Positions 9,019 to 63,269 of a stretch of DNA of 64,000 nucleotides are shown piece by piece. A program made the translations under genes and the position numbers. Source of the stretch: Minisyncoccota bacterium. GTDB taxonomy: Bacteria; Patescibacteriota; Minisyncoccia; JAHIHE01; JAGLIN01. Every line of letters starts with the position of its first letter. Position 1 is the first letter of the stretch. A model generated the notes under the pieces. It was not told where the DNA came from, did not search any database, and saw only the letters and a list, made by a program, of their open reading frames with translations. Where the stretch lies: NCBI GenBank assembly GCA_041661265.1, contig JBAZUT010000008.1:1134-65133 (forward strand), in the 5' to 3' direction.

Positions 9019-9480
9019 TTACGTATTGAAAAATGAAAAGCTAAAAATGAAAAACGACAGAGAAAAATTTAAAAATGAATTTAAGGCGCGAATCTACAAC
9101 TTCATATTGAATCTGATAAAATTCATAGATAACCTGCCCTCCGACAGAGCTACGGATATAATCGCCAAACAGCTCCTCAGAAGCGGCACAAGCATCGGCG
9201 CAAACTATATCGAAGCACAAGCGGCAAGCTCAAAGAAGGACTTTACTAACTTTTTCCACTATTCCTTAAAATCGGCCAATGAAAGCAAGTTCTGGATCGC
9301 GATCTTAAGAGATAGCAAAAAGGCTGGAAAAGAAGAGGCTGAAGCTTTATTGAAAGAGCTTATAGAAATTTCAAACATACTGGGCTCAAGCATTATCACG
9401 CTGAAGAACAAAAGATAGTCCATCTTATATATAATATTTTTTCGTTTTTCATTTTAAATTTTAAATTTGAAATATGTCAA
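9019..9480. repeat. Direct repeat copy 2 (~450 bp) carrying a four-helix-bundle gene, TIR-bounded
   Basis: Near-identical to 7893..8344. TIRs at 9041-9057 and 9442-9458. Confidence 0.8.
9047..9418 (+). CDS. Four-helix-bundle protein (23S rRNA IVS protein / Avd-like family), copy B
   Basis: ORF 9026 uses a TTG start; the ATG at 9047 gives the same 123-aa protein as copy A (one H to N difference). Confidence 0.7.
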   Translation: MKNDREKFKNEFKARIYNFILNLIKFIDNLPSDRATDIIAKQLLRSGTSIGANYIEAQAASSKKDFTNFFHYSLKSANESKFWIAILRDSKKAGKEEAEALLKELIEISNILGSSIITLKNKR

Positions 9481-11333
9481 TTTTCAGCAGTTTGCTGCCA
9501 TCCGGAAATAAGGCAAAAGAAAATAATTCCGCTTCGCCGAAGAAAGGAACCGCAACAGGCGAATCGAGCGCTGTGATCGCTTCGGAGAGGATATACAAGC
9601 AGGGACTTACGACCGTAAAGGACATCATCGCTCCCGCCGCTTTCAGGATCGAAGCGGATTATGTGATGATAAACCGGAAAATGGCGGCGACGTTCTTCGT
9701 TTATGCCTATCCGAGATATTTGCAGACGAATTGGTTCTCCCCGATCGTCAATCTTGACGCGACATTCGACATTGCGATGTTCATCCATCCGCAGAGCAGC
9801 GCGGAGATATTGAGGCATCTTCTCAAGGTTGTAACGCAGATCCAGTCGCAGATCTCCATGAACGAGGAAAGAGGAATGGTCAGGGATCCGATCCTCGAGA
9901 CCGCATATCAGGACGTTGAGAATCTCCGAGATGACCTCCAGCAGGGTATCGAGCATTTTTTCCAGTTCGGGCTCTATATGACAATCTATGGCGATACGAA
10001 AGACGAACTGATGAAGGTTGAGACGCAGATAGAGGCGATCCTTGAGGCAAAGCTCATCTATGTGAAGCCGGCGATAATGCAAATGGAGGAGGCTTTCAAT
10101 TCGACGCTTCCGCTGGCGAGCGACAAGCTCATGATCGTGAACAATATGAACACTTCTCCCCTTTCCACGACTTTCCCGTTCGTTTCGAGCGATCTCACTT
10201 CGAATCAGGGCATTCTCTATGGGATAAACAGGCACAACAACAGTCTGGTGCTTTTTGACAGGTTTTCGATGGAAAATGCGAACATGGTCATTTTCGCAAA
10301 GTCCGGCGCAGGAAAAAGCTATACGGTCAAATTGGAAATACTGCGAAGTTTGATGGTTGAAACGGATGTCATTGTCATAGACCCTGAAGATGAATATAAG
10401 CATCTTTGCGAGACCGTCGGCGGCACTTTCATGAGGATCTCTCTTTCGGCGAAGCATCACATTAATCCTTTTGATCTTCCGACTGCGCTTGAGGATGAAG
10501 CTCCCGCGGACGTGCTTCGTACGGCGATCGCCAATGTCTCCGGACTTCTCAAGGTTATGCTCGGAAAGCTTTCCGCAGAGGAAGACTCGATCTTGGACAA
10601 GGCCATTGCGGAAACCTATGCCATAAAAGACATCACTCCGGAAGCGGAATTCGCGAAGCTTGAACCTCCGACAATGACAGATCTGCAGATGGTGCTTGAG
10701 AATATGAGCGGCGCAGAAAGCCTCTCGACCAGGATCAAGAAATACACTGAAGGAACTTTTGCAGGATTTTTGAACCACAGGACGAATGTCAGCGTGGACA
10801 AAGGCCTCGTCGTTTTCAACATCAGGGACATGGAAGAAGAGCTCCGTCCGGTCGCCATGTATCTCATTCTGCACTATATCTGGACGCTGATCAGGTCCGA
10901 AAGGAAAAGAAGGATGCTTGTGGTCGATGAGGCGTGGTGGATGATGCAGCACGAAGACGCGGCCTCATTTCTCTTTTCGATCGCAAAACGATGCAGGAAA
11001 TATTTCTTGGGCCTCACGACGATCACCCAGGACGTCACCGACTTCATGGGTTCGAGATATGGAAAGCCGATCGTCACCAATTCCTCGATCCAGCTTCTCC
11101 TGAAGCAGTCCCCTGCCGCCATCAAGGTCATCGTGGACACATTCTATCTTACGGATGAGGAGAAGTTCTTGCTATTGGAAAGCAATGTCGGAGAAGGGAT
11201 ATTCTTTGCAGGGGCAAAGCGCGCCGCGATCAAAGTGGTCGCTTCATATTCCGAGGATCAGATCATAACTTCCGATCCCGCCCAGCTCCTTGAGATCGAA
11301 AAGGCAAAGAAAGAACTGGAAGATGTGGCGTAA
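9474..11333 (+). CDS. virB4: VirB4/TraE/PrgJ-type type IV secretion ATPase
   Basis: Gram-positive-type N-terminus KDIIAPAAFRIEADYV...YPRYLQTNWFSPIVNLD. Walker A is FAKSGAGKSY, Walker B is MLVVDEAWWMM. Confidence 0.85.
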   Translation: MSIFSSLLPSGNKAKENNSASPKKGTATGESSAVIASERIYKQGLTTVKDIIAPAAFRIEADYVMINRKMAATFFVYAYPRYLQTNWFSPIVNLDATFDIAMFIHPQSSAEILRHLLKVVTQIQSQISMNEERGMVRDPILETAYQDVENLRDDLQQGIEHFFQFGLYMTIYGDTKDELMKVETQIEAILEAKLIYVKPAIMQMEEAFNSTLPLASDKLMIVNNMNTSPLSTTFPFVSSDLTSNQGILYGINRHNNSLVLFDRFSMENANMVIFAKSGAGKSYTVKLEILRSLMVETDVIVIDPEDEYKHLCETVGGTFMRISLSAKHHINPFDLPTALEDEAPADVLRTAIANVSGLLKVMLGKLSAEEDSILDKAIAETYAIKDITPEAEFAKLEPPTMTDLQMVLENMSGAESLSTRIKKYTEGTFAGFLNHRTNVSVDKGLVVFNIRDMEEELRPVAMYLILHYIWTLIRSERKRRMLVVDEAWWMMQHEDAASFLFSIAKRCRKYFLGLTTITQDVTDFMGSRYGKPIVTNSSIQLLLKQSPAAIKVIVDTFYLTDEEKFLLLESNVGEGIFFAGAKRAAIKVVASYSEDQIITSDPAQLLEIEKAKKELEDVA

Positions 11334-12059: not shown

Positions 12060-13031
12060 ATGGAAAGTGGAAGAATAAAAAGTGGTGTATCCAGAATTGC
12101 CAAAAATGAAAGTGCTAATCGAGTAGCGAATGCAACTCCTTTTGTTGGTGGAGCTAAAAGAATGGCAGAGAGTGCAGCGGGAAAAACATTGGCCGGAGAG
12201 AAATTATCAGGCAGGGATAGGTGGAAACATGGCGCTGGAGGAGCAGCTGATCTGGCTTTGGATTTTACCGGAATTGGAGAGGTTGAGAAAGGCGCAAAAA
12301 TGGCATATATTGGAAAAAAGATAGCAAGCGGTCTGGAAGAAAATACAAAAAAGGAAGCCACAAGAGAAATTAAAGACCAAGTCATTAAAAGAGGCATTGC
12401 GGCTGATAATTATCGTATCAAAAGCCAAGCCGGCAGAAATGAGGAAGCGCAAAGGATAAAAAGCGAAGCTCAAAGAGAAGCCGAGAGGCATATGAATCAT
12501 GAATTCCAAAAATCGGCAAGAATGAGCGGAGTGAAAGGGAGAGTGGCGTCAAAAATCGCCAGCCGGGGCGTATCGGAAGCAGCCTATCAAATTGCCTCCA
12601 GGTTGAGCGAAAAGGCGAAACAAGGGGGGCATTGGGCGGTGATCGTTTTTATTGTAACTTTACTGATAGCTATAATAGTTGACGCGTTAGATATTGTAGG
12701 CACTCTTCTTATTGAAACGATCCTAGGCTGGCTTATTATTTTTCTGATTAACACACTTCTTTCATTGATCATAAATATTTTTTGGATGTTGCTTGCAGGT
12801 GGCGGACATAGCAAGTTTTTTTGGAAGATTCTTGTCAGGTATATCATATTTGGATTGATACTTGATTCCATCCCAATTATAGAATTATTTCCATTTACGG
12901 TTTTTATGGTATGCTGGAACTGGTATGATTATAGCAAAGAAAGAAGTGAAGCGAAGCAAGAATTGAAAAGATTTTCAAAAGTTTATGCAAAAACGGGAGA
13001 AATAAAAGGACAATCCATGAAATATGCTTAG
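12060..13031 (+). CDS. Hypothetical membrane protein (charged N-terminal half, 4 TM helices in C-terminal half) bracketed by the two GIY-YIG elements
   Basis: ORF with GHWAVIVFIVTLLIAIIVDALDIVGTLLIETILGWLIIFLINTLLSLIINIFWMLLAGG. No recognisable family. Confidence 0.4.
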   Translation: MESGRIKSGVSRIAKNESANRVANATPFVGGAKRMAESAAGKTLAGEKLSGRDRWKHGAGGAADLALDFTGIGEVEKGAKMAYIGKKIASGLEENTKKEATREIKDQVIKRGIAADNYRIKSQAGRNEEAQRIKSEAQREAERHMNHEFQKSARMSGVKGRVASKIASRGVSEAAYQIASRLSEKAKQGGHWAVIVFIVTLLIAIIVDALDIVGTLLIETILGWLIIFLINTLLSLIINIFWMLLAGGGHSKFFWKILVRYIIFGLILDSIPIIELFPFTVFMVCWNWYDYSKERSEAKQELKRFSKVYAKTGEIKGQSMKYA

Positions 13032-13379: not shown

Positions 13380-13442
13380 TCAGAGTGACAAGTATTGCAT
13401 AGAAGGGATATTTGCTTTTACAATACCTCAAGACAATATAGT

Positions 13443-13721
13443 ATGAATAAATACTATGTTTATATAGCTTCGAACAGCAGAAATACAGTTTTATATACCG
13501 GCATTACACATAACATAAATCGAAGAATGTTCGAACATAAAAACAAATTAGTTAAAGGTTTTACAGAAAAATATAATGTTGATAAATTAGTGTATTGTGA
13601 AGAATTTAATTCTCCGGGAGAAGCAATTGCCGCCGAAAAGAAAATTAAAGGATGGACAAGAAAGAAAAAGATAGATTTGATCGAAGGGATTAATCCCGAA
13701 TTTGCAGACTTGTTGATATAA
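13443..13721 (+). CDS. GIY-YIG nuclease family protein, second copy (~92% aa identity to 11504..11782)
   Basis: MNKYYVYIASNSRNTVLYTGITHNINRRMFEHKN... ORF 13395 has an upstream extension; the likely start is the ATG at 13443. Confidence 0.8.
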   Translation: MNKYYVYIASNSRNTVLYTGITHNINRRMFEHKNKLVKGFTEKYNVDKLVYCEEFNSPGEAIAAEKKIKGWTRKKKIDLIEGINPEFADLLI

Positions 13722-13852: not shown

Positions 13853-14851
13853 ATGTTTATCAGAAAACGCACCTTGCTCCTGCTTCTCCTTGTTGCATCT
13901 GCCACATTTGCTTACCCTGCTTTTGCCCAATATACCCCAATGGTCAGGATTCCCGGGCTCACCGCCGCGGGAAGCATAAATCTTTCAATGTATCTGGTGG
14001 GATTATATAATTTTATGGTCAGTATTGTGGGAATAGTTGCTGTCATGATGATGATCGTGGGAGGCATGAGATATATAACTGCTGCGGGAAGTTCAACGGC
14101 GATTAGCGATGCAAAAGATATTATCTCAAATGCCGTAGCCGGTCTCGTTATTGCCATTTTTGCCTGGATCATTGTTGCCGCAATAAATCCCGACGTCTTG
14201 TTCATAAAGAAACCCGGATCGGGATTCAAAAATGCTTCATATTTATCTTGTACGAAGCAATATACGGCCGCGATATGCAAGTGCAATGATGACGTGGGTT
14301 TGGGAGTTTTTGCATCTCCGACCGCCTGCAATGATGCATGCAAAGCCGGAAATCATTGCGGCGGTTTGGTGAATAGTTGTATCAGGGATGGAGTGAATGA
14401 AACGACCAGTCCGAAATTTAATACAGCTCCGAATAACGGAAAATGTTTATGTGCTAATGGAGTGGATGTTGTGCCTATACCGCCAGCTACATGTCAAGCG
14501 ACTTGCGCTATAGCAAATTGTATAAAGGCTGATGCAAGAATTGGAAATACAGGAATTACAGGTTTTGTCTCAGGAGTGGTAGATCAAAAAAGGACAACTA
14601 TATACATAAAAAATCCTTGCACGGATTCTTTGGCATTTGATGCTTACAAAACATTTGCTGTAAATCCCTATACGTGCAGTTGGGATTTTGAAAGCGACGG
14701 CACACCTGACAATCCCTCGTGTTTTACAGGATTTTGTCCGGTAAGTGGCGTCTTTATCGCTGGAACTTATACAGCAACGCTTACAGTGACTGACTCTGTT
14801 ACTGGAGCAAGTTCTGCGGACACTGTTATTTATGAAGCAATATATCCATAA
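13853..14851 (+). CDS. VirB2/TrbC-like pilin core with a ~210-aa Cys-rich C-terminal extension (PKD-like tail)
   Basis: Signal peptide, then a pilin-like core (INLSMYLVGLYNFMVSIVGIVAVMMMIVGGMRYITAAGSS...AGLVIAIFAWIIVAAI). Downstream are at least 14 Cys residues and a TGFCPVSGVFIAGTYTATLTVTDSVTG segment. Confidence 0.5.
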   Translation: MFIRKRTLLLLLLVASATFAYPAFAQYTPMVRIPGLTAAGSINLSMYLVGLYNFMVSIVGIVAVMMMIVGGMRYITAAGSSTAISDAKDIISNAVAGLVIAIFAWIIVAAINPDVLFIKKPGSGFKNASYLSCTKQYTAAICKCNDDVGLGVFASPTACNDACKAGNHCGGLVNSCIRDGVNETTSPKFNTAPNNGKCLCANGVDVVPIPPATCQATCAIANCIKADARIGNTGITGFVSGVVDQKRTTIYIKNPCTDSLAFDAYKTFAVNPYTCSWDFESDGTPDNPSCFTGFCPVSGVFIAGTYTATLTVTDSVTGASSADTVIYEAIYP

Positions 14852-17818: not shown

Positions 17819-18661
17819 TCAGACCAGATATTTTTTCATTATTTCTTTGTAATTTTTGCAGAAATCAGTCACGAAAGATTGGTCGGGAAAGAAATTCTGA
17901 AGATCATATGCGAGCTTTCTTTCATCGACCTCCTTTTCGATTTTGTTTTTCAGGACTTGTTTCAGTTCATTCTCGTCTTTGATGGAGAAAGCCTTTTCAA
18001 GGACAGCAAAGTCAGGACTGATGCCTTTGCTGAGATACCAGAATAGGTCATAGAAGTCGCGTCCCTTTATGTCGATAACATTGTTTTTTCCCTTGAACCA
18101 TTTTCGTCCCAGTATCGCCATGATCTTTCCGGTCATCAGAAATTTTAGGGTGTAATTTTTGGCAAGAAAATTGAAGCCGAATGAAGAGACTGGGGAAAGC
18201 TCGGTTTCAAATACTTCGAATTGGCTGATCTCCGGCTCGATTTTGACATAGAGAAAATCGCTTTTTTCTCCATAAATAAGACCAAGATCTTTCAGGATCG
18301 GGAATTTGAGATAGAGCCTGTTTTTTCCCTGGACCCGGAAGGAAGGAACTATAAGGAAATTGTTTTCAAAATATGCAGAAAGTGCCGTGCCCATTTTTTC
18401 CAGATCCAATGTCCGGAAATCAGATTCTTCGAGGTCAAAGTCCAGGTCTTCGGAAAGTCGCGACAAGCCATAGCAAATGCGAAGGCACGATCCGCCGGTG
18501 AAGATGAAGTTTTTATATTCTTTGCTGTTATATATATAGCTCAGAACTGGAAATTGCAGGACCTCTTTAAGGAAGTTTGCGATCACAAAATCAGGAAGCC
18601 CGGCTCTCTTTTTCTCCTGCACCAGGGTTTTCATGGTCTCTTTAAGCATAATATTGTTCAT
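17819..18661 (-). CDS. abiEii: AbiEii/AbiGii family nucleotidyltransferase toxin (type IV toxin-antitoxin / abortive infection)
   Basis: FIFTGGSCLRICYGLSRLSEDLDFDL matches the DUF1814 GGtaL...R.SeDlDf motif. Confidence 0.7.
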   Translation of the reverse strand: MNNIMLKETMKTLVQEKKRAGLPDFVIANFLKEVLQFPVLSYIYNSKEYKNFIFTGGSCLRICYGLSRLSEDLDFDLEESDFRTLDLEKMGTALSAYFENNFLIVPSFRVQGKNRLYLKFPILKDLGLIYGEKSDFLYVKIEPEISQFEVFETELSPVSSFGFNFLAKNYTLKFLMTGKIMAILGRKWFKGKNNVIDIKGRDFYDLFWYLSKGISPDFAVLEKAFSIKDENELKQVLKNKIEKEVDERKLAYDLQNFFPDQSFVTDFCKNYKEIMKKYLV

Positions 18662-34615: not shown

Positions 34616-35938
34616 ATGGCAAAATTATTTTCAAAAATAAACAAAGATGCCGCATGCCTTTTTTTTGTGGCGGCTGCGGGTTTTTTCTTTATGCTTTTTT
34701 TTAAAGAGAAACATTCCATCAGTTTTATGAACCTTGATGAATTCTTGTGGATGTACAGGTCCAGGTTTTTCATTGACAGGATCATGGGTCTGGATTTCGG
34801 TAATCTGATACAGTCTTCGCAGCCCGGGATAATGGTTATGTGGTTTGCCGGTCCATTTATGAAACTCATTGACTTTGATTTTACGAAGATCCAGCTGCTG
34901 ATCCAAAACCTGAACGAGGCCGGAGGATATAATGTCATCAATGATACCGGCAGGAACTATTATGTAGGATATGAATTTATAAGCTTCATGTTCAATATTC
35001 CGGTGATCCTTCTGATGCTGGTATTTTTTCCGGCGTCATATTCGCTTATGCGGAGGCTCGGGATCGGAAGAAGGGCGATATTTCTGTCGCTTCTCCTTAT
35101 TGCCACGACGCCCTATTATGTTTTTTTTACGACGCCCACCGATAAGCTTGTCGGAATATTTTCAACCTTAAGCATTCTTTCGTTTCTGGTGTTCCTTGCA
35201 AAAAAAGGCGGCAAAGGGTTCATCTATCTTTCCGGTTTTGTCGGTTCCTGGGCGGCGCTTACGAAGATGTCGGCTTTATTCCTTATTCCGTTCTTTCTGT
35301 TCGCGCTGCTGGTTTATGTGTTCAAGAAAAGCGATCTTGCGGACTTGAAAGTGTTTCAAAAAAAGGCGGGAGTTTGCGCGAAAGTTTTCTCGGGATGGCT
35401 TTTGGCGTTCATCGTCACGAGTATAATATTTCTTCCGACGATTATCACAGATCCGAGGCAGGTTGCCGGATTATTCATTAGGGAAAGTGATTCAAGATAC
35501 TTGATCCAGAATGCCGAGGCGCAAGATCCGGGAAGCCTTTCCCTGTTCGATTCGGTGAGGAACTATCTTGAGGACCCATTCCTCCCCTCTTTCAATTTTT
35601 TCGTTATCATGGCTTTTCTTGCGTTCCTATTCTTGATTATTCGGAGGATTGAGTATAAAATAAATGTACGAAAAGAGATCTTGCTGTTGTATATTTTTGT
35701 ATTCTCATTTCTGATCTTTTCGGCGACGTTCAGCAGAACATACTCTTTCAGATACATAATGCCGGCCCTGGTTGTTTTTCAGATAATTTCGGGATGGGCG
35801 GTTTATGAGTTTTTCGAGATATTCAGGCGAAAGAACAGTGTTTATTCCAGAAATGAGATCTTTGCCTGGGCGGTTGTTGTCATTCTCATTTCACAGGCGC
35901 TTCTTATCCACTATTCTGAAATTGCGCCGATAGAATGA
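34616..35938 (+). CDS. GT-C fold membrane glycosyltransferase, paralog 2
   Basis: NLDEFLWMYRSR...QPGIMVMWF. Polytopic. Confidence 0.5.
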   Translation: MAKLFSKINKDAACLFFVAAAGFFFMLFFKEKHSISFMNLDEFLWMYRSRFFIDRIMGLDFGNLIQSSQPGIMVMWFAGPFMKLIDFDFTKIQLLIQNLNEAGGYNVINDTGRNYYVGYEFISFMFNIPVILLMLVFFPASYSLMRRLGIGRRAIFLSLLLIATTPYYVFFTTPTDKLVGIFSTLSILSFLVFLAKKGGKGFIYLSGFVGSWAALTKMSALFLIPFFLFALLVYVFKKSDLADLKVFQKKAGVCAKVFSGWLLAFIVTSIIFLPTIITDPRQVAGLFIRESDSRYLIQNAEAQDPGSLSLFDSVRNYLEDPFLPSFNFFVIMAFLAFLFLIIRRIEYKINVRKEILLLYIFVFSFLIFSATFSRTYSFRYIMPALVVFQIISGWAVYEFFEIFRRKNSVYSRNEIFAWAVVVILISQALLIHYSEIAPIE

Positions 35939-38084: not shown

Positions 38085-39782
38085 ATGATGAATTATACCA
38101 AGGAACGGAAAGCAAGGGCATTGCTGGTCTCGATATTATTTGTCGCGATCTTCGCAAGATTTTTGTTCCTTTATGCCAGAGATGTTCCTGTTATTGCGGA
38201 TGCAGTCCTCTATGCCCAGTCCGGGAAAAACTTTATAGAGACCGGGCGGTATGCAACTTCAGGAGGCGATCTGGTGGATATTGTTTTTCCTCCCGGCTAT
38301 CCGATCGCCGTAGGATTAGCCGATCATTTTTTCAATAATCCCCTCTTTTCCCTCAGATTCGTATCTTTTGTCTTCGGGTCTTTGCTTGTGCATCTGTTCT
38401 ATCTTACCGGAAGGGAAATGAGCGGCGAGAAGGCCGGACTGTTCGCATCTTTTTTTGCCGCTACGAACTCCACTTTGATATTGTTTTCTCAGGAAGTTTA
38501 TTCCGAGTCCATGTTTTTTTTCTTCACTCTGCTTTCTTTTTATCTGTTTCTCAGGCTAAGTAAGGAACCCAAGAACAAAAATGCGGTTTTTTTCGGCTTC
38601 TCCATAGGCATGTCCTATCTTATCCGTCCAGAGGGACTGCTTTTAATGGTCCTGCCCTTTATTTTCTTATTGCGGATAATAAAGAAGTTTCAGTATGAAA
38701 TTTTATTACGCTTTCTTTTGGTCTTATTTGTCACATTTTTCGTGATGTTTCCGTATGTCTATTTTCTTTCGCAAAAGACCGGAAAGCCTGCCATTACCGC
38801 CAAAATGAGCACGAATCTGGCTGCCGGAATAAATTTCGACGGTGCGGATATGTCCCGTTTGAGCAGAGATCATTTTTTGCGGTATGAGGAAAATGAGGCG
38901 AATTATAATGAACAGACGAATGAATTGGATTATCCAAAAGAAGAGTTCAAAAATACCAGCATTCTGACCGTTCTTTTGGATAATAATTTCTCCGGAAGAT
39001 ATATTGCCGGATTCAGATCAGAGGCATATGCCTTGTCAGCCGATCATTGGGCGGGCATTCTCTTGCTGCCGATATTATTGGCTATCATTTATGCGGTCAG
39101 GGATCAGAAAAACAGAAAAAACATCCTTGTGCTTTCCATCCTGTCGGCCGAACTGCTCATAATGTTTCCGATATTCCACATTGAAAGCAGGTATCTCGCG
39201 CAGGTGCTGATATTTCTGATCCTGTTTGCTTCTTTGGGGTATGCCGGATATAAAGGTCCCGGAACCGAGTTGTTGCCAAGGAAATTCACCGTTTTCATAA
39301 AAAATTTGGTGATAGTCCTGATATCGTCAAGTTTTATATTATTTTTATATCTATCGTTCGTTACCAATGAGTTCGGGGGTTTCTGCAATTATGCTTTTTG
39401 CATCAATACCAATGTCCGTGACAGGTCATTTCCTCCCACTGAAAACAGCCTGGCATATGAATATAAAATTGCGGGAGAATATATTAAAAATAATTCAGAT
39501 AGCGGCGAGGGCGGCGGTCTTATCATGTCCAGACGGCCCGTCGAAGTTTCTTTTTACGCGGGTATGGACAGTTTGGGAATAACATTTCCCGATACCAGTG
39601 CGGAAAATGTGATAAAATTCGCTAAAGCCAACAATGTTAAATATATCATAGTGGACAAAAGATATCTTGGCGTAAGGAAAAACTATAAAGATTTGGCCAG
39701 TCTGCAAGATTTTTCGAACGACGTTTATCTTGTTTTTGAAGACAGCTCGGTATCTGACATTAAATTGTTCCAAGTCAAGTGA
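38085..39782 (+). CDS. ArnT/PMT-like (GT39/GT83-type) GT-C glycosyltransferase, paralog A
   Basis: PPGYPIAVGLADHFFNNPLFSLRFVSFVFGSLLVHLFYLTGREMSGEKAGLFASFFAATNS. Polytopic with a C-terminal soluble domain. Confidence 0.6.
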   Translation: MMNYTKERKARALLVSILFVAIFARFLFLYARDVPVIADAVLYAQSGKNFIETGRYATSGGDLVDIVFPPGYPIAVGLADHFFNNPLFSLRFVSFVFGSLLVHLFYLTGREMSGEKAGLFASFFAATNSTLILFSQEVYSESMFFFFTLLSFYLFLRLSKEPKNKNAVFFGFSIGMSYLIRPEGLLLMVLPFIFLLRIIKKFQYEILLRFLLVLFVTFFVMFPYVYFLSQKTGKPAITAKMSTNLAAGINFDGADMSRLSRDHFLRYEENEANYNEQTNELDYPKEEFKNTSILTVLLDNNFSGRYIAGFRSEAYALSADHWAGILLLPILLAIIYAVRDQKNRKNILVLSILSAELLIMFPIFHIESRYLAQVLIFLILFASLGYAGYKGPGTELLPRKFTVFIKNLVIVLISSSFILFLYLSFVTNEFGGFCNYAFCINTNVRDRSFPPTENSLAYEYKIAGEYIKNNSDSGEGGGLIMSRRPVEVSFYAGMDSLGITFPDTSAENVIKFAKANNVKYIIVDKRYLGVRKNYKDLASLQDFSNDVYLVFEDSSVSDIKLFQVK

Positions 39783-39797
39783 CGCAGGGCCTGCGTT

Positions 39798-41504
39798 GTG
39801 CTTGTGAGCTCGTTATCCGGGATGTTTTGTTTATTTAAGATCCGACAGATGCTGAAAAATATCAATAAAATCTGCAGAGGGAGCATTCCAGTGCTCCTGA
39901 TCCTGGCAATAGCTCTTTTTGCGAGGCTGGTTTTGTTCTTTCATGACGTAACCATAGATAATGACGGGATCGCATATGGACTTGCCGGAAAGAATCTGGT
40001 CGAAAGCGGAAAATATGAAGTTTACGGCGATCCATTGCTGATATATCCTCCCGTGTATCCCATAGCCATAGGGATAGTCGATCATTTTTCCGGTAACCTG
40101 CTTTTTTCCGGAAGGTTTGTTTCGCTGCTATTCGGGATGCTGCTGGTCTATGCATTTTATGCGTTTGGCAAGAAGCTTTATGGAAAGGAGGCGGGACTCT
40201 TTGCGTCTTTTTTCGCTGCAACGAATTATTCGCTGGTCGCATATTCGTCAGTGACCAGATCGGAAATGATATATTTATTCATCCTGGCACTTATTTTGTA
40301 TGTATATATTCTGCTGATCGAAAAATGCGAAGATGCCAAGGCGGCAGTTCTGGGATCGTTGATGGCAGCATTATATCTTACGAGGCCGGAAGGACTACTG
40401 ATGTGGATCTTGCCGATATTATTGTTTTATAAGCTTCTGAAAAAGACAAATATCTATGCGGCCCTGCGTTCTCTGGCTATTATTTTCTTATCGTTTATGA
40501 TAATTTCCGCCCCTTATATTTATTTTTTATATGAAAATACGGGAAGGGTGGAATTGACCGAGAAGACGAATTCCAATGTAATCCCGGCAGTGATCTTCGG
40601 AGGCAGTGCGATCGAGGATTTGAGCGGAGAGAAATGGCTGAAATATGAAAAAAGCAGAGATTATTATGACGAAGATACTAATACGATCATCGATTATAAG
40701 GAGTATTCCAATGGCGATGCGGTAAGTTATGTTTTAAAAAAACCGGACATTATTTTGAATAATTATGTACGGGGTATAAAGTCGGAAATCTCAATTTTAT
40801 TCATTGAACACGGGATCAGTCTCATACTCTTGCCGCTGCTGTTGTCTTTTTTGTTTCTGTTTAAAAAAACCAAGGAGAGGGAGAGTGTTGCTGTGTTGTT
40901 GTTAGTCGCAATCCTGTATCTGATGATAATACCGGTCTTCCATATTGAAAGCAGGTATATGCTGCAGGTACTTGTTTTTTTGATACTTATTTCTTCGCTG
41001 GGATATTCTTTCCGCACTGAGCGCGGAATTAAGGTCCTGGGTATAGAATTCAATGGCGGGGATTTTTTCCGTATTTTCAGAACGATAACATTGTTTCTTG
41101 TCATGATCCAATTTGCGTTTTCAATTGTTAATATTTATAAACAAGATGACGGCAAATTCTATCCATGGGAGTATAGGCTGGCCGGAGAATTCATTGGAAA
41201 ATATGATACTAAGGAAAACGGAGTTTTGATAATGTCCAGAAATAGTTACATAATCTCATACTATGCAAATGCCGGAAATAGCGGCATCAGAATGCCTTAT
41301 GCCGATGTCCCAAGTATCATCAGGTTTGCCAGGGAAAACAAAGCAAATTACATTGTAATTGATGAAAGGTTCCTTTCGGTGAGAGAGAATTACGACGAAC
41401 TTTGGAAATTAGATCGATTTTCAAATGATGCCGAACTTATTTTTGAAGACAGTTCCGTAATGCCGATCCGAATATTCAGATTTCGCGATGCAAATGAAAA
41501 TTAA
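39798..41504 (+). CDS. ArnT/PMT-like GT-C glycosyltransferase, paralog B (first ~400 nt identical to paralog C)
   Basis: Same family as paralog A. Likely start is the ATG at 39849 (MLKNINK). Confidence 0.6.
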   Translation: MLVSSLSGMFCLFKIRQMLKNINKICRGSIPVLLILAIALFARLVLFFHDVTIDNDGIAYGLAGKNLVESGKYEVYGDPLLIYPPVYPIAIGIVDHFSGNLLFSGRFVSLLFGMLLVYAFYAFGKKLYGKEAGLFASFFAATNYSLVAYSSVTRSEMIYLFILALILYVYILLIEKCEDAKAAVLGSLMAALYLTRPEGLLMWILPILLFYKLLKKTNIYAALRSLAIIFLSFMIISAPYIYFLYENTGRVELTEKTNSNVIPAVIFGGSAIEDLSGEKWLKYEKSRDYYDEDTNTIIDYKEYSNGDAVSYVLKKPDIILNNYVRGIKSEISILFIEHGISLILLPLLLSFLFLFKKTKERESVAVLLLVAILYLMIIPVFHIESRYMLQVLVFLILISSLGYSFRTERGIKVLGIEFNGGDFFRIFRTITLFLVMIQFAFSIVNIYKQDDGKFYPWEYRLAGEFIGKYDTKENGVLIMSRNSYIISYYANAGNSGIRMPYADVPSIIRFARENKANYIVIDERFLSVRENYDELWKLDRFSNDAELIFEDSSVMPIRIFRFRDANEN

Positions 41505-41566
41505 TTGTGATCGGAAGCGCTGCTTTTTGGGTAAATAACGATCCTTAATATATTTTTGTCCGACAG

Positions 41567-43210
41567 ATGCTGAAAAATATCAATAAAATCTGCAGAGGGA
41601 GCATTCCAGTGCTCCTGATCCTGGCAATAGCTCTTTTTGCGAGGCTGGTTTTGTTCTTTCATGACGTAACCATAGATAATGACGGGATCGCATATGGACT
41701 TGCCGGAAAGAATCTGGTCGAAAGCGGAAAATATGAAGTTTACGGCGATCCATTGCTGATATATCCTCCCGTGTATCCCATAGCCATAGGGATAGTCGAT
41801 CATTTTTCCGGTAACCTGCTTTTTTCCGGAAGGTTTGTTTCGCTGCTATTCGGGATGCTGCTGGTCTATGCATTTTATGCGTTTGGCAAGAAGCTTTATG
41901 GAAAGGAGGCGGGACTCTTTGCGTCTTTTTTCGCTGCAACGAATTATTCGCTGATTATATATTCTCAAGAAACACAGGCCGAGTCCATGTATTTGTTCTT
42001 TATACTGCTGACTTTCTACTTCTATCTGAAAATCACTGAGAAATACAAAAATAATTTTGCAATAGCCATGGGGTCGTCGACGGCTATTGCCTATCTGATC
42101 AGGCCGGAAGCGTTGCTTTTTTTAATTTTATCTTTGGTGTTTTTTATACAAAGAATGAGAGGCTTTGAACCCAAGAAAGCCGTTCTCGGATTTTTCCTTA
42201 TGCTCTTTTCTTTTCTTGCGGTTTCAACTCCCTATATTTATTTTCTTTATAAATATACCGGGAAAATATCCCTGACTGAAAAAGCAAGTTCAAATATTAT
42301 TCACGGAGTGATTTTCGATGGCATAGACAAGGAAAGATTGGGCGACGAAGAAGCTCGTTATTATGAAAGAAGCATAGCCTATTATGACGAAAGCACGAAT
42401 ATGATAAAGGATCCGTCGGAATTCAGAGAAATAAGCCTCGATAAGTCAATCTTGAATGATTCTGATAAGTTTATTCTTAAATATATAAGAAGTGTCAAAT
42501 CAGAGATCATGGTTTTGCTGGCTGATCATAGCGTAAATCTGATTCTGCTTCCTCTTCTTGTTACGTATATATATTTTATCAGGTCAAAAAAGGACAAAAA
42601 CAACATCGGAGTCATGTCCCTGATTTCCTTTTTATATTTTCTTATTTTGCCCTTTTTTCACATAGAGAGCAGATATTTGCTTCAAGTGCTGGTGTTTCTG
42701 ATCCTTCTTTCCTCTTTCGGATATGCCATGCGGAAAGACTTCAAGCTAAGTATATTGAGGCTGGAGCTGCCCAGTAAAATATTTTTTAGCTATATGAGGA
42801 TAATGATCCTATTCCTGGTTTCCCTGCAATTTGTTTTCTCTATTGTCTTGTTTTCCCTTTTTTCCAGAACCGAAGACTATCCATGGGAGTATAAGCTGGC
42901 CGGAGAATTTATAAAAAATGATCATCTGCAGGAGAAAGATGTTGTAATAATGTCAAGAAACAGGAGCATCGTTTCATATTATGCCAATACTGAGCATGGG
43001 GGGGTCAATATTCCATATACAGATGCTCTTAATGTCATTAAATTTGCCAAAGCAAACAAAGTAAATTATATTGTAATTGACAAAAGATTTTTGCAAATAA
43101 GAGAGAATTATGACGAACTGGCCGATCTCGACAGATATGCCGTAGGTATTAAATTGGTTTACGAAGATGATTCCGTTTATCCGGTGAGGGTTTTCAAGCT
43201 TTCTTATTAA
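41567..43210 (+). CDS. ArnT/PMT-like GT-C glycosyltransferase, paralog C
   Basis: N-terminal 133 aa identical to paralog B, remainder about 50% identical. Confidence 0.6.
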   Translation: MLKNINKICRGSIPVLLILAIALFARLVLFFHDVTIDNDGIAYGLAGKNLVESGKYEVYGDPLLIYPPVYPIAIGIVDHFSGNLLFSGRFVSLLFGMLLVYAFYAFGKKLYGKEAGLFASFFAATNYSLIIYSQETQAESMYLFFILLTFYFYLKITEKYKNNFAIAMGSSTAIAYLIRPEALLFLILSLVFFIQRMRGFEPKKAVLGFFLMLFSFLAVSTPYIYFLYKYTGKISLTEKASSNIIHGVIFDGIDKERLGDEEARYYERSIAYYDESTNMIKDPSEFREISLDKSILNDSDKFILKYIRSVKSEIMVLLADHSVNLILLPLLVTYIYFIRSKKDKNNIGVMSLISFLYFLILPFFHIESRYLLQVLVFLILLSSFGYAMRKDFKLSILRLELPSKIFFSYMRIMILFLVSLQFVFSIVLFSLFSRTEDYPWEYKLAGEFIKNDHLQEKDVVIMSRNRSIVSYYANTEHGGVNIPYTDALNVIKFAKANKVNYIVIDKRFLQIRENYDELADLDRYAVGIKLVYEDDSVYPVRVFKLSY

Positions 43211-58442: not shown

Positions 58443-58475
58443 AAAAAAAGAAAGGCCGTCGCCTTTCTTTTTAAA
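58443..58475. terminator. Bidirectional rho-independent terminator (GAAAGGC-cgtc-GCCTTTC flanked by A-run and T-run)
   Basis: Lies between the convergent genes 57646..58371 (+) and 58498..58878 (-). Confidence 0.6.
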
Positions 58476-58497: not shown

Positions 58498-58878
58498 TTA
58501 GGAAACGCCCTTTGTCAGGACAACAGTAGAAACGACGATGACCATAGCATATGCGAGACCGCAGATGACCATGCCGATAACTCCGTAGGAGATAGTTTTC
58601 TTTGCAGTAGCAACTGAATCTTCATTTCCAGCAGCGGTTAGATATTGAAAACCGCCCATAATGATGACCAATGTAGCGATCATAGCGATGAAACCGAGAA
58701 TGAAGTTGGTAACATTCATAATCGATTGTATGATGTCGGTCTGTACGTTCTTTGGTGATCTTTTGGTTCCCCAAGTAGGGATAGTAGTAGCGAAAGCGAC
58801 TCCTGTCGTATATGCCAATGCGTATGCGATCGATAGAGAAGCAAATACGCTTTTTACCGTTTTTGTCATTTTGTTCAC
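58498..58878 (-). CDS. VirB2/TrbC-like pilin, paralog 1
   Basis: Signal peptide, then MNVTNFILGFIAMIATLVIIMGGFQYLTAAGNED...GVIGMVICGLAYAMVIVV. Confidence 0.6.
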   Translation of the reverse strand: MNKMTKTVKSVFASLSIAYALAYTTGVAFATTIPTWGTKRSPKNVQTDIIQSIMNVTNFILGFIAMIATLVIIMGGFQYLTAAGNEDSVATAKKTISYGVIGMVICGLAYAMVIVVSTVVLTKGVS

Positions 58879-58918
58879 CTCCTTTCAAATATAATAAAAA
58901 TAATTTCTGTAATAATTT

Positions 58919-59293
58919 TTATGTTGGCTTTAATACGGTTTCAACCAGTACGACTACGATAGCGTAGGCGAGGCCGCAGATTATAAGTCCCAGAAGTCCG
59001 TTTTTGATGGTCTTTTTTCCGGTTTCGGCTTGTGATTCGTCTCCGGCAGAGGTTAGATACAAGATACCGCCCCAGATTATGGCAAGCACTGCGATCGAAC
59101 CGACAAATCCCAGGATCCAGTTCGTCATGTTCAGTATCGCTTTGTCAAAACTTGTCGGAACGCTGTTCGGCTTCGAAGGCGCTGACCACTTGCTCGCTGC
59201 GCTCGCGACTTCTGTCGCGAATAACATTATATTAACAAAAAAGAATGAAAAAATGTGCTTTAAATTCATTCTTTTGCAGTGATTTTCGGTCAT
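58919..59293 (-). CDS. VirB2/TrbC-like pilin, paralog 2
   Basis: LNMTNWILGFVGSIAVLAIIWGGILYLTSAGDE. Confidence 0.6.
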   Translation of the reverse strand: MTENHCKRMNLKHIFSFFFVNIMLFATEVASAASKWSAPSKPNSVPTSFDKAILNMTNWILGFVGSIAVLAIIWGGILYLTSAGDESQAETGKKTIKNGLLGLIICGLAYAIVVVLVETVLKPT

Positions 59294-59325
59294 TTTTTTA
59301 TTTTATTTTTTAAAATATTTGAGAA

Positions 59326-59658
59326 CTATTTCAGTATCGTATTTACGAAGACTACGACCAATGCATAGGATATGCCCGAGATCACAAGTCCCATCAAAGC
59401 ATACTTGATCACTTTTTTGGCTTCGCTTGCAGTGTTCTGATCTCCCAGGGAATATGTGTATTTTATTCCGCCCCAGATAATCGCGAGCACTGCCATGGAA
59501 GCGACAAATCCCAGGATCCAGTTCGTCATATTCAGTACGGCTCTGTCAAAGTTACTAGGAAGGCCAAAATCATTTACGGGAAGGGCCCATTGCGCAGAGG
59601 CGATTTGGATCGGTGCAAGACAGACAGCTATATATAAAACAGGTTTTAATAAATTCAT
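59326..59658 (-). CDS. VirB2/TrbC-like pilin, paralog 3
   Basis: LNMTNWILGFVASMAVLAIIWGGIKYTYSLGDQ. Confidence 0.6.
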   Translation of the reverse strand: MNLLKPVLYIAVCLAPIQIASAQWALPVNDFGLPSNFDRAVLNMTNWILGFVASMAVLAIIWGGIKYTYSLGDQNTASEAKKVIKYALMGLVISGISYALVVVFVNTILK

Positions 59659-59716
59659 GAGTTCTATTGCTTATCTTGTGTTAATTATTGCACAATAAGT
59701 CTTGAAGGTCAAATGG

Positions 59717-60112
59717 CTATGTAAGTATGGTGCTGACTACAACGATCAGGGCATAGGATATGCCTACAACTACAAGTCCCATGAGGGAATATTGGACTAT
59801 TTTTTTGCCCGTTTGAGCTTGTTCCTGGTTTCCTGTGGACATAATATAATATAAACCTCCAATAATGATCATTATAACACAAATCGCCGTTGCAAAACCC
59901 AGGATCCATCCTGTCAGGTCGTGCAGGGCTGCAGTGAAGGCTTTTGATGGAATTCCCGCTCCGCAATCCGCCTTACAATTGAAGATGTCTTCGCCTGCTT
60001 TCCAGTCGCACGTGCCGTCGGGGCAAGCGGCAGCGATCACCCTATTGGCAGAGAATGGCAGAAATGTAAAAAACAAAACTAACAATAATTGTGCGAAAAA
60101 ACGCTTTTTCAT
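59717..60112 (-). CDS. VirB2/TrbC-like pilin, paralog 4, with a Cys-rich insert (CPDGTCDWKAGEDIFNCKADC)
   Basis: LHDLTGWILGFATAICVIMIIIGGLYYIMSTGNQE. Confidence 0.6.
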   Translation of the reverse strand: MKKRFFAQLLLVLFFTFLPFSANRVIAAACPDGTCDWKAGEDIFNCKADCGAGIPSKAFTAALHDLTGWILGFATAICVIMIIIGGLYYIMSTGNQEQAQTGKKIVQYSLMGLVVVGISYALIVVVSTILT

Positions 60113-60127
60113 TCGTTTTGAATATTT

Positions 60128-60556
60128 TTATTTATGAGCGCGATAGTTTTCAATTGCCTTATGGAGCGCCGTTGCGGCGAGGTTTGAACAATGCATTTTG
60201 ACCGGAGGAAGCCCCTCGAGGCTGTCCGCTACATTCTTGTTGGAAATTTTTAATGCCTCGTCCAGCGTTTTTCCTTTGGCAAGGTCCGTTACCATCGATG
60301 AGGTGGCGATCGCAGCTGCGCAGCCCAGGGTTTCGAATTTAATATCCTCTATCGAATCATTTCTTTTGTCTACTTTTATATAAATTTTCATCAGATCTCC
60401 GCAGACCGGATTGCCTGCTTCGCCTATTGCGTCCGCTATTTCGATTTTACCATAATTGTGCGGCTTTGTAAAATGCTCTATGACCTTTTTTGAATACATA
60501 TATGTAAATTTATAGTCTCGCGGTGCTTGATTAATGCTCTTATTGTATAATATCAT
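60128..60556 (-). CDS. iscU: Fe-S cluster assembly scaffold protein, IscU/NifU-like
   Basis: Three conserved Cys: NPVCGD, LGCAAAIAT, MHCSNLA. Likely start is at the internal MYSKKVIEHF. Confidence 0.8.
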   Translation of the reverse strand: MILYNKSINQAPRDYKFTYMYSKKVIEHFTKPHNYGKIEIADAIGEAGNPVCGDLMKIYIKVDKRNDSIEDIKFETLGCAAAIATSSMVTDLAKGKTLDEALKISNKNVADSLEGLPPVKMHCSNLAATALHKAIENYRAHK

Positions 60557-60917: not shown

Positions 60918-63269
60918 TTATTCATTGTCAAAATTTCGTGTAAAAACAGTTCCAAATATTTTGTCCGATGCAAGGTCTGTGCTGGCCTTCATTTCATTCA
61001 CAGCCGCAATTTGCATATTATTGGAAGTCCATGCGATCTTCCAGTTTATGGGAATTGTGATCAATGAATTGAATTTGCTTCCCCTGCTTCCCAATTGTTT
61101 CTGGACCAAAATGCTATATTTTTCGGCAGGTTTCGTGTAGTCGTCGAAATTTATCTTATATGGAAGCTTGTACTTGTATGTAACTTCAACTTTTTCTTTG
61201 GGGCTGACAAAGACCCAGTTTCCGAATACGGTCTTTCCCGATTCTTCGAATATCTGCGTTTTGGAATCAACGTCGATCCTAATGGTCTTTTCTATTTTTT
61301 CAACATCCTCATCGGTCTTGAATCCGCTGTAGTCCATCGGAGGGGCATATTCTTCAATGGTATGGCCTTTTGCTTCAAGGAGCGTGCTTCCGAGCGGAAC
61401 ATACACTCTCATATAATCCGCGTTTACGCGATTATACCAGTCATAGTCGCTGTCTCCTCCATTGTGGATCCTGGTTATTTTTACGGTATCAATGATCGAA
61501 CCATCGGCCATTATTTCGGTCCGGAGATCTATTGTTTCGTCGACGACAGCATCCGTTTTAAATCCGTTAATGTTACTGTTCACGACGCTGAGATAGTCCC
61601 CGCTTGAGTTCTGGATCTGTCCTCCCCATCCTCGTTTCAGGATCATGTTCTCTATTTCAGCCTCTCTGTGAAAAAGGACGATATGTTTTTCTTTCAGGCT
61701 TTTTTCGAATGCCTCGAATGTTCTCAGGTATTTTGATATTTTTTCTTGGGTTGAAAGATTCTCGGTATCCAGAAGTTTTTCTATGATCCTCGGAGCAAGA
61801 TCAGCCAAGAACTTTTTGGGATTGTTCTCTTTCTTGTCATACAGTTCCTCGACTTGAAGCTGGGTCATCCTTAAAAAATTATCCTTGTCTACGATCGTAT
61901 TGTATTCGGGCATTGCGATCGGTCCGGTGATCCCTAAAATATTTTCTATCACATTCGGAGTGATGGCTATGACGCCGTCAACCGTCGGTCCGCCTGTTTT
62001 CTCATAGAATGAGGCAACCTTTTTCGCGCTGAGCGGAAAATCCGCAAACCAGTTCGCATCGTGCATGCTCCAGGCGGCGCTGATCTTCTGGATCGGCATC
62101 GGAGGAACTATCTTTTCTTTGAGCTGGCCATCCGGATTGAATATTCCATCCACGAAGAAGTTCTCCAATTTGCCGTTTTCGATGTCGGCGATGGCATAGC
62201 TTCCGATAAAACCTCCGCCTGCCCTGATCTCGGTATTGTTCTCAAATATGAAAAGATATTTTTGCAGGCGGTTTTCGCTGCCCAGCATTTTGAGCAGTAT
62301 CGGAATGTCCTGGTCCAGATTTTTCATGTTATTTGCGACATAAGGAACCTTGTCTTTCAGTGTGGCCAGTTTTTCGCGATAATCTTCCGGAACGAAAGCA
62401 TCATCGATATTCTGCATGTTGTCACTTGCAGTTTCCAGGTGTGTTGAAATTTTCCTGATGTGTCCCTGAAGAGGATATATCTGGTCGATGGAGAAATTGT
62501 TCTTGTCCAGAAAGGAAATATCTTCGAAAAGGCCGGCAGCTTCTTTTCCGGCAAGGGAGACATTTTCTCCCGCTGATGCGATGTTCTTTGCTGTGGAAAG
62601 AGGCGTGTTGATGGGGAGGCTGTTCAGGATTCCGGAGATCCCCATTCCGAGGTCATCGATAGTGTTTTTGGTATTTGAAAAATAGAGATTTGCATTGGAA
62701 AGATTATTTTGAGTATTTACCAGATCGGAATTCGAGATGGAAATGCCGGCATCTTTCAGGTATCCCAACGCCTTTGTTCCTTCGGCGAGAACCTGATCTT
62801 TTCTCTCCAGCTCTTTTTCGAGGGAAGCCAGGCCAAAGACCATGGATGTTACGACCAAGGCGGATGACAAGAAGAAAACGAAATTCTTCGCAAAAGAGAA
62901 TGACGGGCGGGACAGCAGCAGCTTTTTTTCAGGCCTATCCGCCGCACTCGACTCCTTCATCTCGTTGCGGGTGTTTTTTGTCTCGATCTTTTTTTGGGCG
63001 GATCCTTTTTCCGGCCTGATGTCTTGTGGGCCATCGTTCTTGAAAGCGGCCTGTTCTACCCAATCCTTTCTTTTTTGGAAGACACGTTCCGTGCCGATCT
63101 TCGCGCTTTCCGTCCTGATTATTCCGGAAACGGACTTTTTGTTATTTTTTGTCGGAGCATCGGCGTTCTTTCTGGAAACAGAAAAATTGCGGAGATCAAC
63201 TACGCCTTTTGTCCTCAAGTCCCCCCTCTGATAGAGAAGGTTGGATTTTCTAACGGGAATGATGTCCAC
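60918..63269 (-). CDS. DUF4012-like large membrane-anchored extracytoplasmic protein
   Basis: N-terminal TM helix FFLSSALVVTSMVFGLASL. Central RAGGGFIGSYAIADIENGKL resembles the DUF4012 signature. Confidence 0.55.
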   Translation of the reverse strand: MDIIPVRKSNLLYQRGDLRTKGVVDLRNFSVSRKNADAPTKNNKKSVSGIIRTESAKIGTERVFQKRKDWVEQAAFKNDGPQDIRPEKGSAQKKIETKNTRNEMKESSAADRPEKKLLLSRPSFSFAKNFVFFLSSALVVTSMVFGLASLEKELERKDQVLAEGTKALGYLKDAGISISNSDLVNTQNNLSNANLYFSNTKNTIDDLGMGISGILNSLPINTPLSTAKNIASAGENVSLAGKEAAGLFEDISFLDKNNFSIDQIYPLQGHIRKISTHLETASDNMQNIDDAFVPEDYREKLATLKDKVPYVANNMKNLDQDIPILLKMLGSENRLQKYLFIFENNTEIRAGGGFIGSYAIADIENGKLENFFVDGIFNPDGQLKEKIVPPMPIQKISAAWSMHDANWFADFPLSAKKVASFYEKTGGPTVDGVIAITPNVIENILGITGPIAMPEYNTIVDKDNFLRMTQLQVEELYDKKENNPKKFLADLAPRIIEKLLDTENLSTQEKISKYLRTFEAFEKSLKEKHIVLFHREAEIENMILKRGWGGQIQNSSGDYLSVVNSNINGFKTDAVVDETIDLRTEIMADGSIIDTVKITRIHNGGDSDYDWYNRVNADYMRVYVPLGSTLLEAKGHTIEEYAPPMDYSGFKTDEDVEKIEKTIRIDVDSKTQIFEESGKTVFGNWVFVSPKEKVEVTYKYKLPYKINFDDYTKPAEKYSILVQKQLGSRGSKFNSLITIPINWKIAWTSNNMQIAAVNEMKASTDLASDKIFGTVFTRNFDNE

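Follow-up and report, generated by a model that had tools for sequence, protein, structure and literature searches.

What are four small, similar genes doing in tandem within a region of envelope-glycan genes in a Minisyncoccota bacterium? The genes lie on the minus strand at positions 58498-60112 of a 64,000-nucleotide stretch of contig JBAZUT010000008.1 (assembly GCA_041661265.1), which was analysed at its full length and is called the window below. Our answer, to which we give a probability of roughly 70%, is that they encode VirB2-like pilin subunits of a chromosomal, relaxase-less, monoderm-type type IV secretion system (T4SS) of a Paceibacterota (Patescibacteria/Candidate Phyla Radiation) bacterium, and that these subunits are assembled outside the cell. 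We base this reading on matches of all four proteins to the T4SS pilin family PF18895, on their layout of signal peptide and helical hairpin, and on the presence of VirB6-like, PrgI and VirB4 genes and a fifth pilin gene in the same window. It draws further on the recurrence of a two-locus layout, in which the secretion core and the pilin array stand apart, on the constraint acting on the genes, and on accessory modules at what would be the outward-facing ends of the proteins. Pilin arrays published for Patescibacteria and similar small proteins in T4SS clusters of monoderm plasmids (weak tblastn matches) point the same way. Tool results cover the family assignment, the hairpin prediction and the genomic association, whereas processing, topology and assembly are argued by analogy with F and T pili.

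The first-pass annotation had described four minus-strand open reading frames (ORFs) of 110-131 aa with a common architecture, and both the ORF list and the alignment bear this out. As listed, the four co-oriented ORFs measure 131, 110, 124 and 126 aa. We number the genes by their order in the array: type 1, the first gene (59717-60112, 131 aa), type 2 (59326-59658, 110 aa), type 3 (58919-59293, 124 aa) and type 4, whereas ORF1 to ORF4 denote types 4, 3, 2 and 1 in the score series below. The type 4 ORF was listed from a GTG (58498-58878, 126 aa). It probably starts instead at the ATG at 58869 (58498-58869, 123 aa), because AAGGAGGTG lies 8 nt upstream of this codon and gene callers give 123 aa on identical metagenome contigs. 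The intergenic gaps of the array are 58, 32 and 40-49 bp. Paralogy of the four genes is evident in their DNA as well: a 100-nt stretch of the second gene recurs in the third at 83% identity, and the repeat period is 388-401 nt. The array is real and not a chance pattern, since all four ORFs score above a curated family threshold and the array recurs in at least seven other contigs from metagenomes or metagenome-assembled genomes (MAGs). This genome is represented in the samples ERZ27249449 (ENA) and SRR6484324 (SRA).

Aligned with one another, the four proteins share 22 invariant columns, including T..ILGF, GG..Y, G, KK and G..YA. Each begins with a hydrophobic segment that ends in a small-x-small site and contains two strongly hydrophobic 19-residue windows; the N-terminal segment of ORF1 is the weakest of the four and falls below the hydropathy cut-off. 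Hydropathy and the A-x-A sites predict cleavage (slash) at …VIAAA/C in type 1, …IASA/QW in type 2, …VASA/AS in type 3 and …VAFA/TT in type 4. Type 3 carries an N-terminal extension, MTENxxKRM, that is conserved among its orthologues. The PF18895-type layout, a small protein with signal-peptide features and a two-helix hydrophobic hairpin, is found in all four. In type 1 the order is signal peptide, a four-Cys N-terminal module and the two-helix pilin core, and an AlphaFold2 (AF2) model of this protein, built from 45 sequences, folds residues 59-90 and 96-130 into a helical hairpin with a predicted local distance difference test (pLDDT) score of 81-94.

Family assignment gave a similar picture. 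All four ORFs exceed the gathering cut-off of PF18895 (T4SS_pilin, 26.6 bits), with 41.7, 48.4, 31.6 and 30.9 bits for ORF1 to ORF4, and type 3 fits the pilin models best. The array can be linked to the TrbC/VirB2 family PF04956 (gathering cut-off 27.9 bits) by alignments that are sub-threshold yet nearly full-length, the best being that of ORF2 (type 3; 25.1 bits, E = 2e-5, profile positions 11-95 of 98), and by the close relative P0205, which is 54% identical to ORF2 and scores above the cut-offs of PF18895 (55.5 bits) and PF04956 (33.7 bits) alike. Many other close relatives bear precomputed PF04956 hits and several are named ‘pilin’ by NCBI, where the type 1 product itself is listed as a hypothetical protein of a Candidatus Paceibacterota MAG. 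At corresponding positions, an annotated VirB2 reads NNICTFILGPFG…AVLGIVAIG and the array pilins NMTNWILGFVG…AVLAIIWGG. In NCBIfam, the matches to NF045849 remain below threshold (24.8-34.7 bits against a cut-off of 40). Overall, the identification of the four ORFs as VirB2-like T4SS pilin paralogues is supported. The suggestion of the first-pass annotation that they are major and minor pilin variants appears compatible with the position-specific orthologue groups described below.

Is there a secretion system for these pilins to belong to? The window encodes T4SS components on the plus strand: a VirB6-like polytopic protein at 3788-6100 (a weak assignment, PF04610 TrbL 19.6 bits against a cut-off of 25.9), a PrgI/VirB3-like component at 7431-7883 (PF12666, 39.2 bits) and a VirB4-type ATPase at 9474-11333 (P-loop_TraG 93.2 bits, plus AAA_10 and DUF87). 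Located 2.5 kb downstream of VirB4, and absent from the first-pass annotation, is a fifth, ‘long’ pilin of 332 aa (13853-14851, plus strand), detected at E = 5e-12 with a custom hidden Markov model of the array pilins and their orthologues and at 34.2 bits with PF18895. The T4SS cluster is therefore not pilin-free, and the array is not the only pilin locus of this genome. In the long pilin, a signal peptide and a hairpin are followed by about 210 residues, made up of a Cys-rich middle part (16 Cys) and a PKD/Ig-like domain at the C-terminus. The last part of the AF2 model is a beta domain, for which the top Foldseek matches in the PDB are the PKD domains of AAVR (probability 1.0, E = 3e-3), in agreement with weak Pfam PKD hits. 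NCBI names the protein ‘MAG: pilin’, and its 76 homologues are mostly 340-560 aa long. For the role of an adhesive or tip subunit, the long pilin is the best candidate.

The same division into two loci was seen in one other assembly, JAGLOZ01. One of its contigs (L009) carries, in order, a VirB6-like gene, PrgI, a TraC-like gene, VirB4, a 343-aa gene and a long-pilin homologue, with a large unannotated protein at the position of the VirB6-like gene, and another (L018) carries DUF4012, NifU and four pilins. By this comparison, the layout of a core with a long pilin and a remote array of short pilins is conserved.

The immediate surroundings of the array recur as well. Directly upstream, on the same strand and separated from the first pilin gene by 15 bp, lies a NifU/IscU-like gene (60128-60556; PF01592, 160.7 bits), and upstream of this NifU-pilin block is the gene of a 783-aa DUF4012 protein (60918-63269, minus strand; PF13196, 91.4 bits). 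Identical contigs (L001, L002) carry the same DUF4012-NifU-pilin block, as do the diverged contigs L003, L004 and L005, in the last of which NifU overlaps the first pilin gene by 4 bp. The block has five pilins in L007/L008, and L016 has DUF4012 and five pilins without NifU. DUF4012 thus stands beside the pilin array in L001-L005, L007, L016 and L018. A promoter-like TTGACA-16-TACAAT, near consensus with 11 of 12 matches, is found at 60569-60542 ahead of nifU. After the last pilin gene, a hairpin resembling an intrinsic terminator, followed by a U-run, faces the convergent rmlA (58445-58472, minus strand; 12-bp stem, -15.5 kcal/mol, z = -3.7, with none of 200 shuffles folding as well). The array is probably co-transcribed with nifU.

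We then compared the pilins position by position. Orthologues that occupy the same position in different genomes have cores 75-100% identical (78-97% for type 2 and 75-100% for type 4), compared with 40-62% for paralogues. Nei-Gojobori ratios of nonsynonymous to synonymous substitution rates (dN/dS) against L003-L005 are about 0.1-0.2 overall, 0.03-0.18 in the core and about 0.03-0.08 in the type 2 core, and all of these ratios are rough since dS is saturated. Judged by these figures, the four genes represent old paralogue types, each conserved at its own position and maintained by purifying selection, which fits distinct, non-redundant roles better than recent amplification. The distribution figures in this report derive from a search of a protein library (39,494 cluster representatives, E up to 1e-3) and from the literature, and a search for related loci with two narrow peptide patterns returned four loci.

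In the same library, the proteins P0017, P0018 and P0021 and many others contain three to eight consecutive pilin hairpins behind one signal peptide, for example six repeats in a protein of 552 aa. These chains look like pilin polyproteins, a fused counterpart of the tandem arrays; they are candidates, for which an artefact of gene calling or genetic code is possible.

How does this locus relate to known systems? The four-gene array is a further example of the VirB2-like pilin arrays published for Patescibacteria. Quinonero-Coronel et al. 2025 (PMC12102498) searched 3,035 Patescibacteria genomes with PF04956 and PF18895. They reported VirB2-like pilins in 1,948 VirB4-containing assemblies, with a pilin gene near virB4 in 1,135, and 441 arrays of 2-11 pilin genes with a mean identity of 25% and a maximum of 54%. 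Their definition of an array, namely 2-11 PF18895/PF04956 genes in tandem or with one non-pilin gene between them and VirB4 in the genome, applies to the genes described here. The likeness extends to the phylum, the two models, the tandem and sequence-divergent small pilin genes, and a relaxase-less MPF-FATA-like T4SS with VirB4, PrgI/VirB3 and VirB6-like genes. By contrast, core identity among the paralogues here (40-62%) is higher than the mean of 25% reported for the published arrays. A four-Cys module marks the first gene, and the core cluster has a long pilin separate from the array. In Southlakia epibionticum ML1, a six-gene essential pilin array lies inside the T4SS cluster (Wang et al. 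2023, PMC10633639; essential also according to PMC12857230), whereas the present array is 47 kb from virB4, behind nifU, in an envelope-glycan region. We did not meet a remote array, nifU linkage, a four-Cys module or a separate long pilin in the available descriptions of PMC10633639 and PMC12102498. What is new here is the position-specific types, the DUF4012-NifU-pilin block, a four-Cys module without a curated family, the other Cys-rich modules that relatives carry at its position, and the long pilin near VirB4.

Tandem, diverged virB2 paralogues are also known from the T4SSs of Bartonella and Anaplasma, where they are read as antigenic or host-range variation in animal pathogens (as cited in PMC12102498). 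The array resembles these in having several diverged tandem copies. It differs in that every copy has a same-position orthologue and a dN/dS of about 0.1-0.2 (rough), which points to fixed, distinct roles. On the same grounds, a same-position orthologue for each copy and ratios well below 1 (again rough, with dS saturated), we rejected recent amplification for antigenic variation.

Compared with Agrobacterium VirB2 and RP4 TrbC (PF04956), the array pilins are alike in the small precursor, the signal peptide, the two-helix hydrophobic hairpin and an N-x-x-x-[FW]-I-L-G motif at the start of helix 1, and VirB3, VirB4 and VirB6 homologues are present in the genome. They differ in missing the PF04956 cut-off, in an hhalign probability of 2.5%, in longer mature proteins (88-102 aa) and in a monoderm host; also unlike those systems, no VirB5, VirB7, VirB9, VirB10 or TraF-type cyclase was seen in the window. 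A second set of relatives consists of the NF045849 proteins (Mbov_0395 family, Mycoplasma integrative and conjugative elements, ICEs) and a protein of the Enterococcus mundtii plasmid pLDW-8, which are small, two-helix and weakly matched in sequence, and which belong to T4SS clusters of bacteria without an outer membrane. Those genes are single-copy and belong to mobile elements that also encode a coupling protein and a relaxase, whereas here four to five chromosomal copies occur with no relaxase nearby.

Searching with ORF2, tblastn matched monoderm plasmid genes weakly (E = 1 to 1e-3). The gene on pLDW-8 (L010, 8926-9213; E = 1) is annotated ‘TrbC/VirB2 family protein’ and lies inside a T4SS cluster, and a small, unannotated pilin-like gene lies in the T4SS cluster of an Embleya plasmid (L011, 9001-9231; E = 2e-3). 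Both are directly upstream of VirB6-like, PrgI, VirB4 and VirD4 genes. To our knowledge, monoderm T4SSs are commonly stated to be without VirB2 homologues, a statement with which these two putative pilin genes sit awkwardly.

The Cys-rich insert that the first-pass annotation had placed ahead of the core of one pilin is indeed there. The module, CPDGTCDWKAGEDIFNCKADC, lies at 59963-60025 on the minus strand, right after the predicted signal-peptide cleavage site of type 1, and occurs once in a six-frame translation of the window. Among the 16 orthologues of type 1 (59-81% identity), the four Cys and GEDIFNCKxDC show little or no variation and come directly behind the A-x-A site. The AF2 model determines this region poorly (pLDDT 53-65). 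Searches of the four-Cys module against Pfam, NCBIfam and the PDB gave no match, and a literature search for CGDGxC-type strings gave nothing relevant. The module is probably held by two disulfides and exposed outside the cell. Reading the Cys behind the signal peptide as that of a lipoprotein was rejected, as the orthologues have A, Y, N, R, H or Q at position -3 and not L, V or I; it is also disfavoured by the number of Cys, which fits two disulfides.

Type 1 orthologues in L016 and L018 do not have the four-Cys module, which on this comparison is lineage-specific. At this position, however, other pilin types bear Cys-rich modules of similar or larger size, among them genes 1 and 4 of L007 (gene 4 being a duplicate of gene 3, with 89% core identity), gene 4 of L003, genes 3 and 4 of L018, and the library proteins P0052, P0054, P0131 and P0057. 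The larger Cys-rich inserts of relatives matched no Pfam family. P0076 (646 aa) has Ig-like repeats at the position of the Cys module, and both P0076 and P0057 have large N-terminal ectodomains. Across these proteins, the segment between signal peptide and helix 1 appears as a recurrent insertion point for accessory modules, which fits an outward-facing N-terminus.

Could the location of the array among glycan genes reveal its function? It is bordered on one side by RmlA, a methyltransferase, RmlB, a GT4 enzyme and a flippase, and on the other, beyond NifU and DUF4012, by another GT4 gene, so that its adjacent genes include nucleotide-sugar and polysaccharide enzymes. A plus-strand run of about 24 kb (glycosyltransferase, methyltransferase, aminotransferase, flippase and rml genes), headed by GT-C genes, ends at the array. 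One explanation is that the products of the surrounding glycosylation genes modify the pilins, which would be presented as glycoproteins, and that the array’s position in the glycan island reflects this. In every related genome examined the array lies in a polysaccharide/glycosylation region, by DUF4012 and GT4 genes; Ser, Thr and Pro abound in the N-terminal segments of the mature proteins (e.g., SAPSKPNSVPTS); and N-[MV]-T immediately precedes helix 1 in three of the four pilins. The window also encodes four PMT_2-type GT-C enzymes, three of them in tandem (34616-35938 and 38085-43210, plus strand), and the first-pass annotation had taken the array to adjoin them. This is not so: they are 15-24 kb away, and none was found in the flanks fetched for related loci. 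The window annotation shows no gene for a protein-acting glycosyltransferase adjacent to the pilins, and no STT3/PglB-type enzyme for N-linked transfer was found, the GT-C genes being PMT_2-type instead. Moreover, the genes on the convergent side vary by genome (rml here, Polysacc_synt in L004, LPG_synthase_TM in L005 and L007). N-x-T is missing from the Cys-rich pilin and from genes 2 and 3 of L007, and since it is not universal it is more likely a helix-capping motif. Pilin genes of Patescibacteria usually lie near virB4 rather than near glycan genes (PMC12102498). On balance, we consider glycosylation of the pilins by these genes quite unlikely.

Several results weigh against pilin subunits of a T4SS assembled outside the cell. 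The array shares a contig with the T4SS genes, but lies within envelope-glycan genes and, as the first-pass annotation correctly had it, 47 kb from VirB4. That annotation also called the genes VirB2/TrbC-like and proposed PF04956 as the check; the pilin assignment stands through PF18895 and the signal-peptide features, but PF04956 itself is reached by none of the four (25.1, 20.8 and 16.9 bits, and no match for the Cys-rich gene). An hhalign comparison of 45 relatives with four annotated VirB2/TrbC proteins aligned 35 columns, in helix 1 only (probability 2.5%, E = 0.018). A profile of the 45 relatives found no pilin among PDB sequences, and when the AF2 model of the Cys-rich pilin was compared with the PDB by Foldseek, nothing but generic helical hairpins matched (E >= 0.3). 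A helical hairpin is, however, too simple a fold to be diagnostic, and the absence of a pilin match from structure searches is to be expected. Signal-peptide cleavage, membrane topology and disulfides are in turn inferred from the protein sequences. Finally, Gram-positive T4SSs are generally without pili (PMC10633639, PMC12857230), and a 2025 review treats the T4SS pilus of Patescibacteria as still hypothetical, none having been observed (PMC12857230).

These last points favour a role without an extended pilus, in which members of the T4SS_pilin family would be membrane-embedded or short stalk subunits of a translocation channel. The small genes in the Enterococcus and Embleya T4SS clusters (weak tblastn, E = 1 and 2e-3) and the sub-threshold match to NF045849, a ‘pilin-like conjugal transfer protein’ model of Mycoplasma ICEs, are consistent with such a role, which small homologues in pilus-less monoderm conjugation systems presumably have. 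An exposed polymer nevertheless accounts more easily than a buried part of a channel for four to six diverged copies whose outward ends bear adhesin-like or Cys-rich modules, and single chains of three to eight hairpins suggest a polymerising unit. We regard the channel role as unlikely, though it is the main rival to our reading. It is very improbable, by comparison, that the proteins are unrelated to T4SSs and serve instead, alongside DUF4012 and the glycan machinery, as small envelope proteins of two helices whose pilin matches reflect hydrophobic composition. The distance to VirB4, the tight DUF4012-NifU synteny across genomes and weak matches to unrelated membrane families in the same scans could all be cited for this. 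Yet the curated cut-off is exceeded by all four proteins, and the conserved motifs N.TNW, GG..Y..S.G and KK are not hydrophobic. A gene with a PF18895-type domain also lies near VirB4, both here and in L009, a similar small gene is annotated ‘TrbC/VirB2 family protein’ in a plasmid T4SS cluster, and the close relative P0205 passes PF04956.

Taking the genes as subunits of an extracellular T4SS structure, we can outline how they might work. Spacing, the promoter-like site and the predicted fold suggest transcription together with nifU from a promoter near 60.55 kb, ending at the hairpin at 58445-58472. Sec would export the precursors, and signal peptidase I would cleave them at the A-x-A site, as their sequence features suggest. 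The mature protein of 88-102 aa would then form a helical hairpin in the membrane, with both ends outside and a short, Lys-containing loop in the cytoplasm; the hairpin is predicted with high confidence, and the topology follows from the positive-inside rule and the analogy with F and T pilins. By analogy only, VirB4, PrgI/VirB3 and the VirB6-like protein (3.8-11.3 kb) would pull the subunits out of the membrane and build a tube or stalk from them outside the cell. Add-on modules would be displayed on the outside, in line with accessory modules occurring only at the ends predicted to face outward, and the Cys-rich and PKD-like domain of the long pilin would occupy its other outward-facing end. 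The four types may have distinct roles, for example one bulk subunit and several specialised ones.

A bolder proposal, which we put forward as speculative and doubtful, is that the four types and the PKD-bearing long pilin build a heteromeric surface T4SS filament, with Cys-rich and Ig-like modules as interchangeable host-recognition heads and the DUF4012-NifU-pilin block tying the filament to envelope-glycan assembly. If true, it would provide a defined subunit plan, the first of its kind, for the as yet unobserved T4SS pilus of Patescibacteria. These bacteria, which live attached to other microbes, account for a large part of bacterial diversity. The T4SS and its pilin array are essential in the sole species tested genetically. 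The locus adds no new principle. It does offer a clear case from Paceibacteria whose details can be tested: the four pilin types are stable and follow a fixed order, add-on modules are found only at the presumed outward ends, and a long pilin with an Ig-like domain lies by VirB4. Such features allow predictions as to which subunits have a structural role and which are exposed, and could guide antibody, cryo-electron tomography and structure-prediction work on the proposed pilus.

A few further genes of the window deserve mention. Three paralogous ‘23S rRNA intervening sequence protein’ genes (PF05635, a four-helix bundle; 6959-7324, 7915-8286 and 9026-9418, plus strand) are interleaved with the T4SS core, and L009 has one such gene between PrgI and the TraC-like gene. 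Two genes separate VirB4 from the long pilin: one (12060-13031, plus strand) encodes a 323-aa protein with a weak, below-cut-off match to the pre-toxin TG domain (PT-TG, E = 8e-4), and the other (13395-13721, plus strand) is a GIY-YIG nuclease gene, which looks like an insertion relative to L009, where the 343-aa gene directly precedes the long pilin. Further along, at 17819-18661 on the minus strand, is an AbiEii-type nucleotidyltransferase toxin gene of a type IV toxin-antitoxin system (PF08843), with a 212-aa gene of no matched family beside it.

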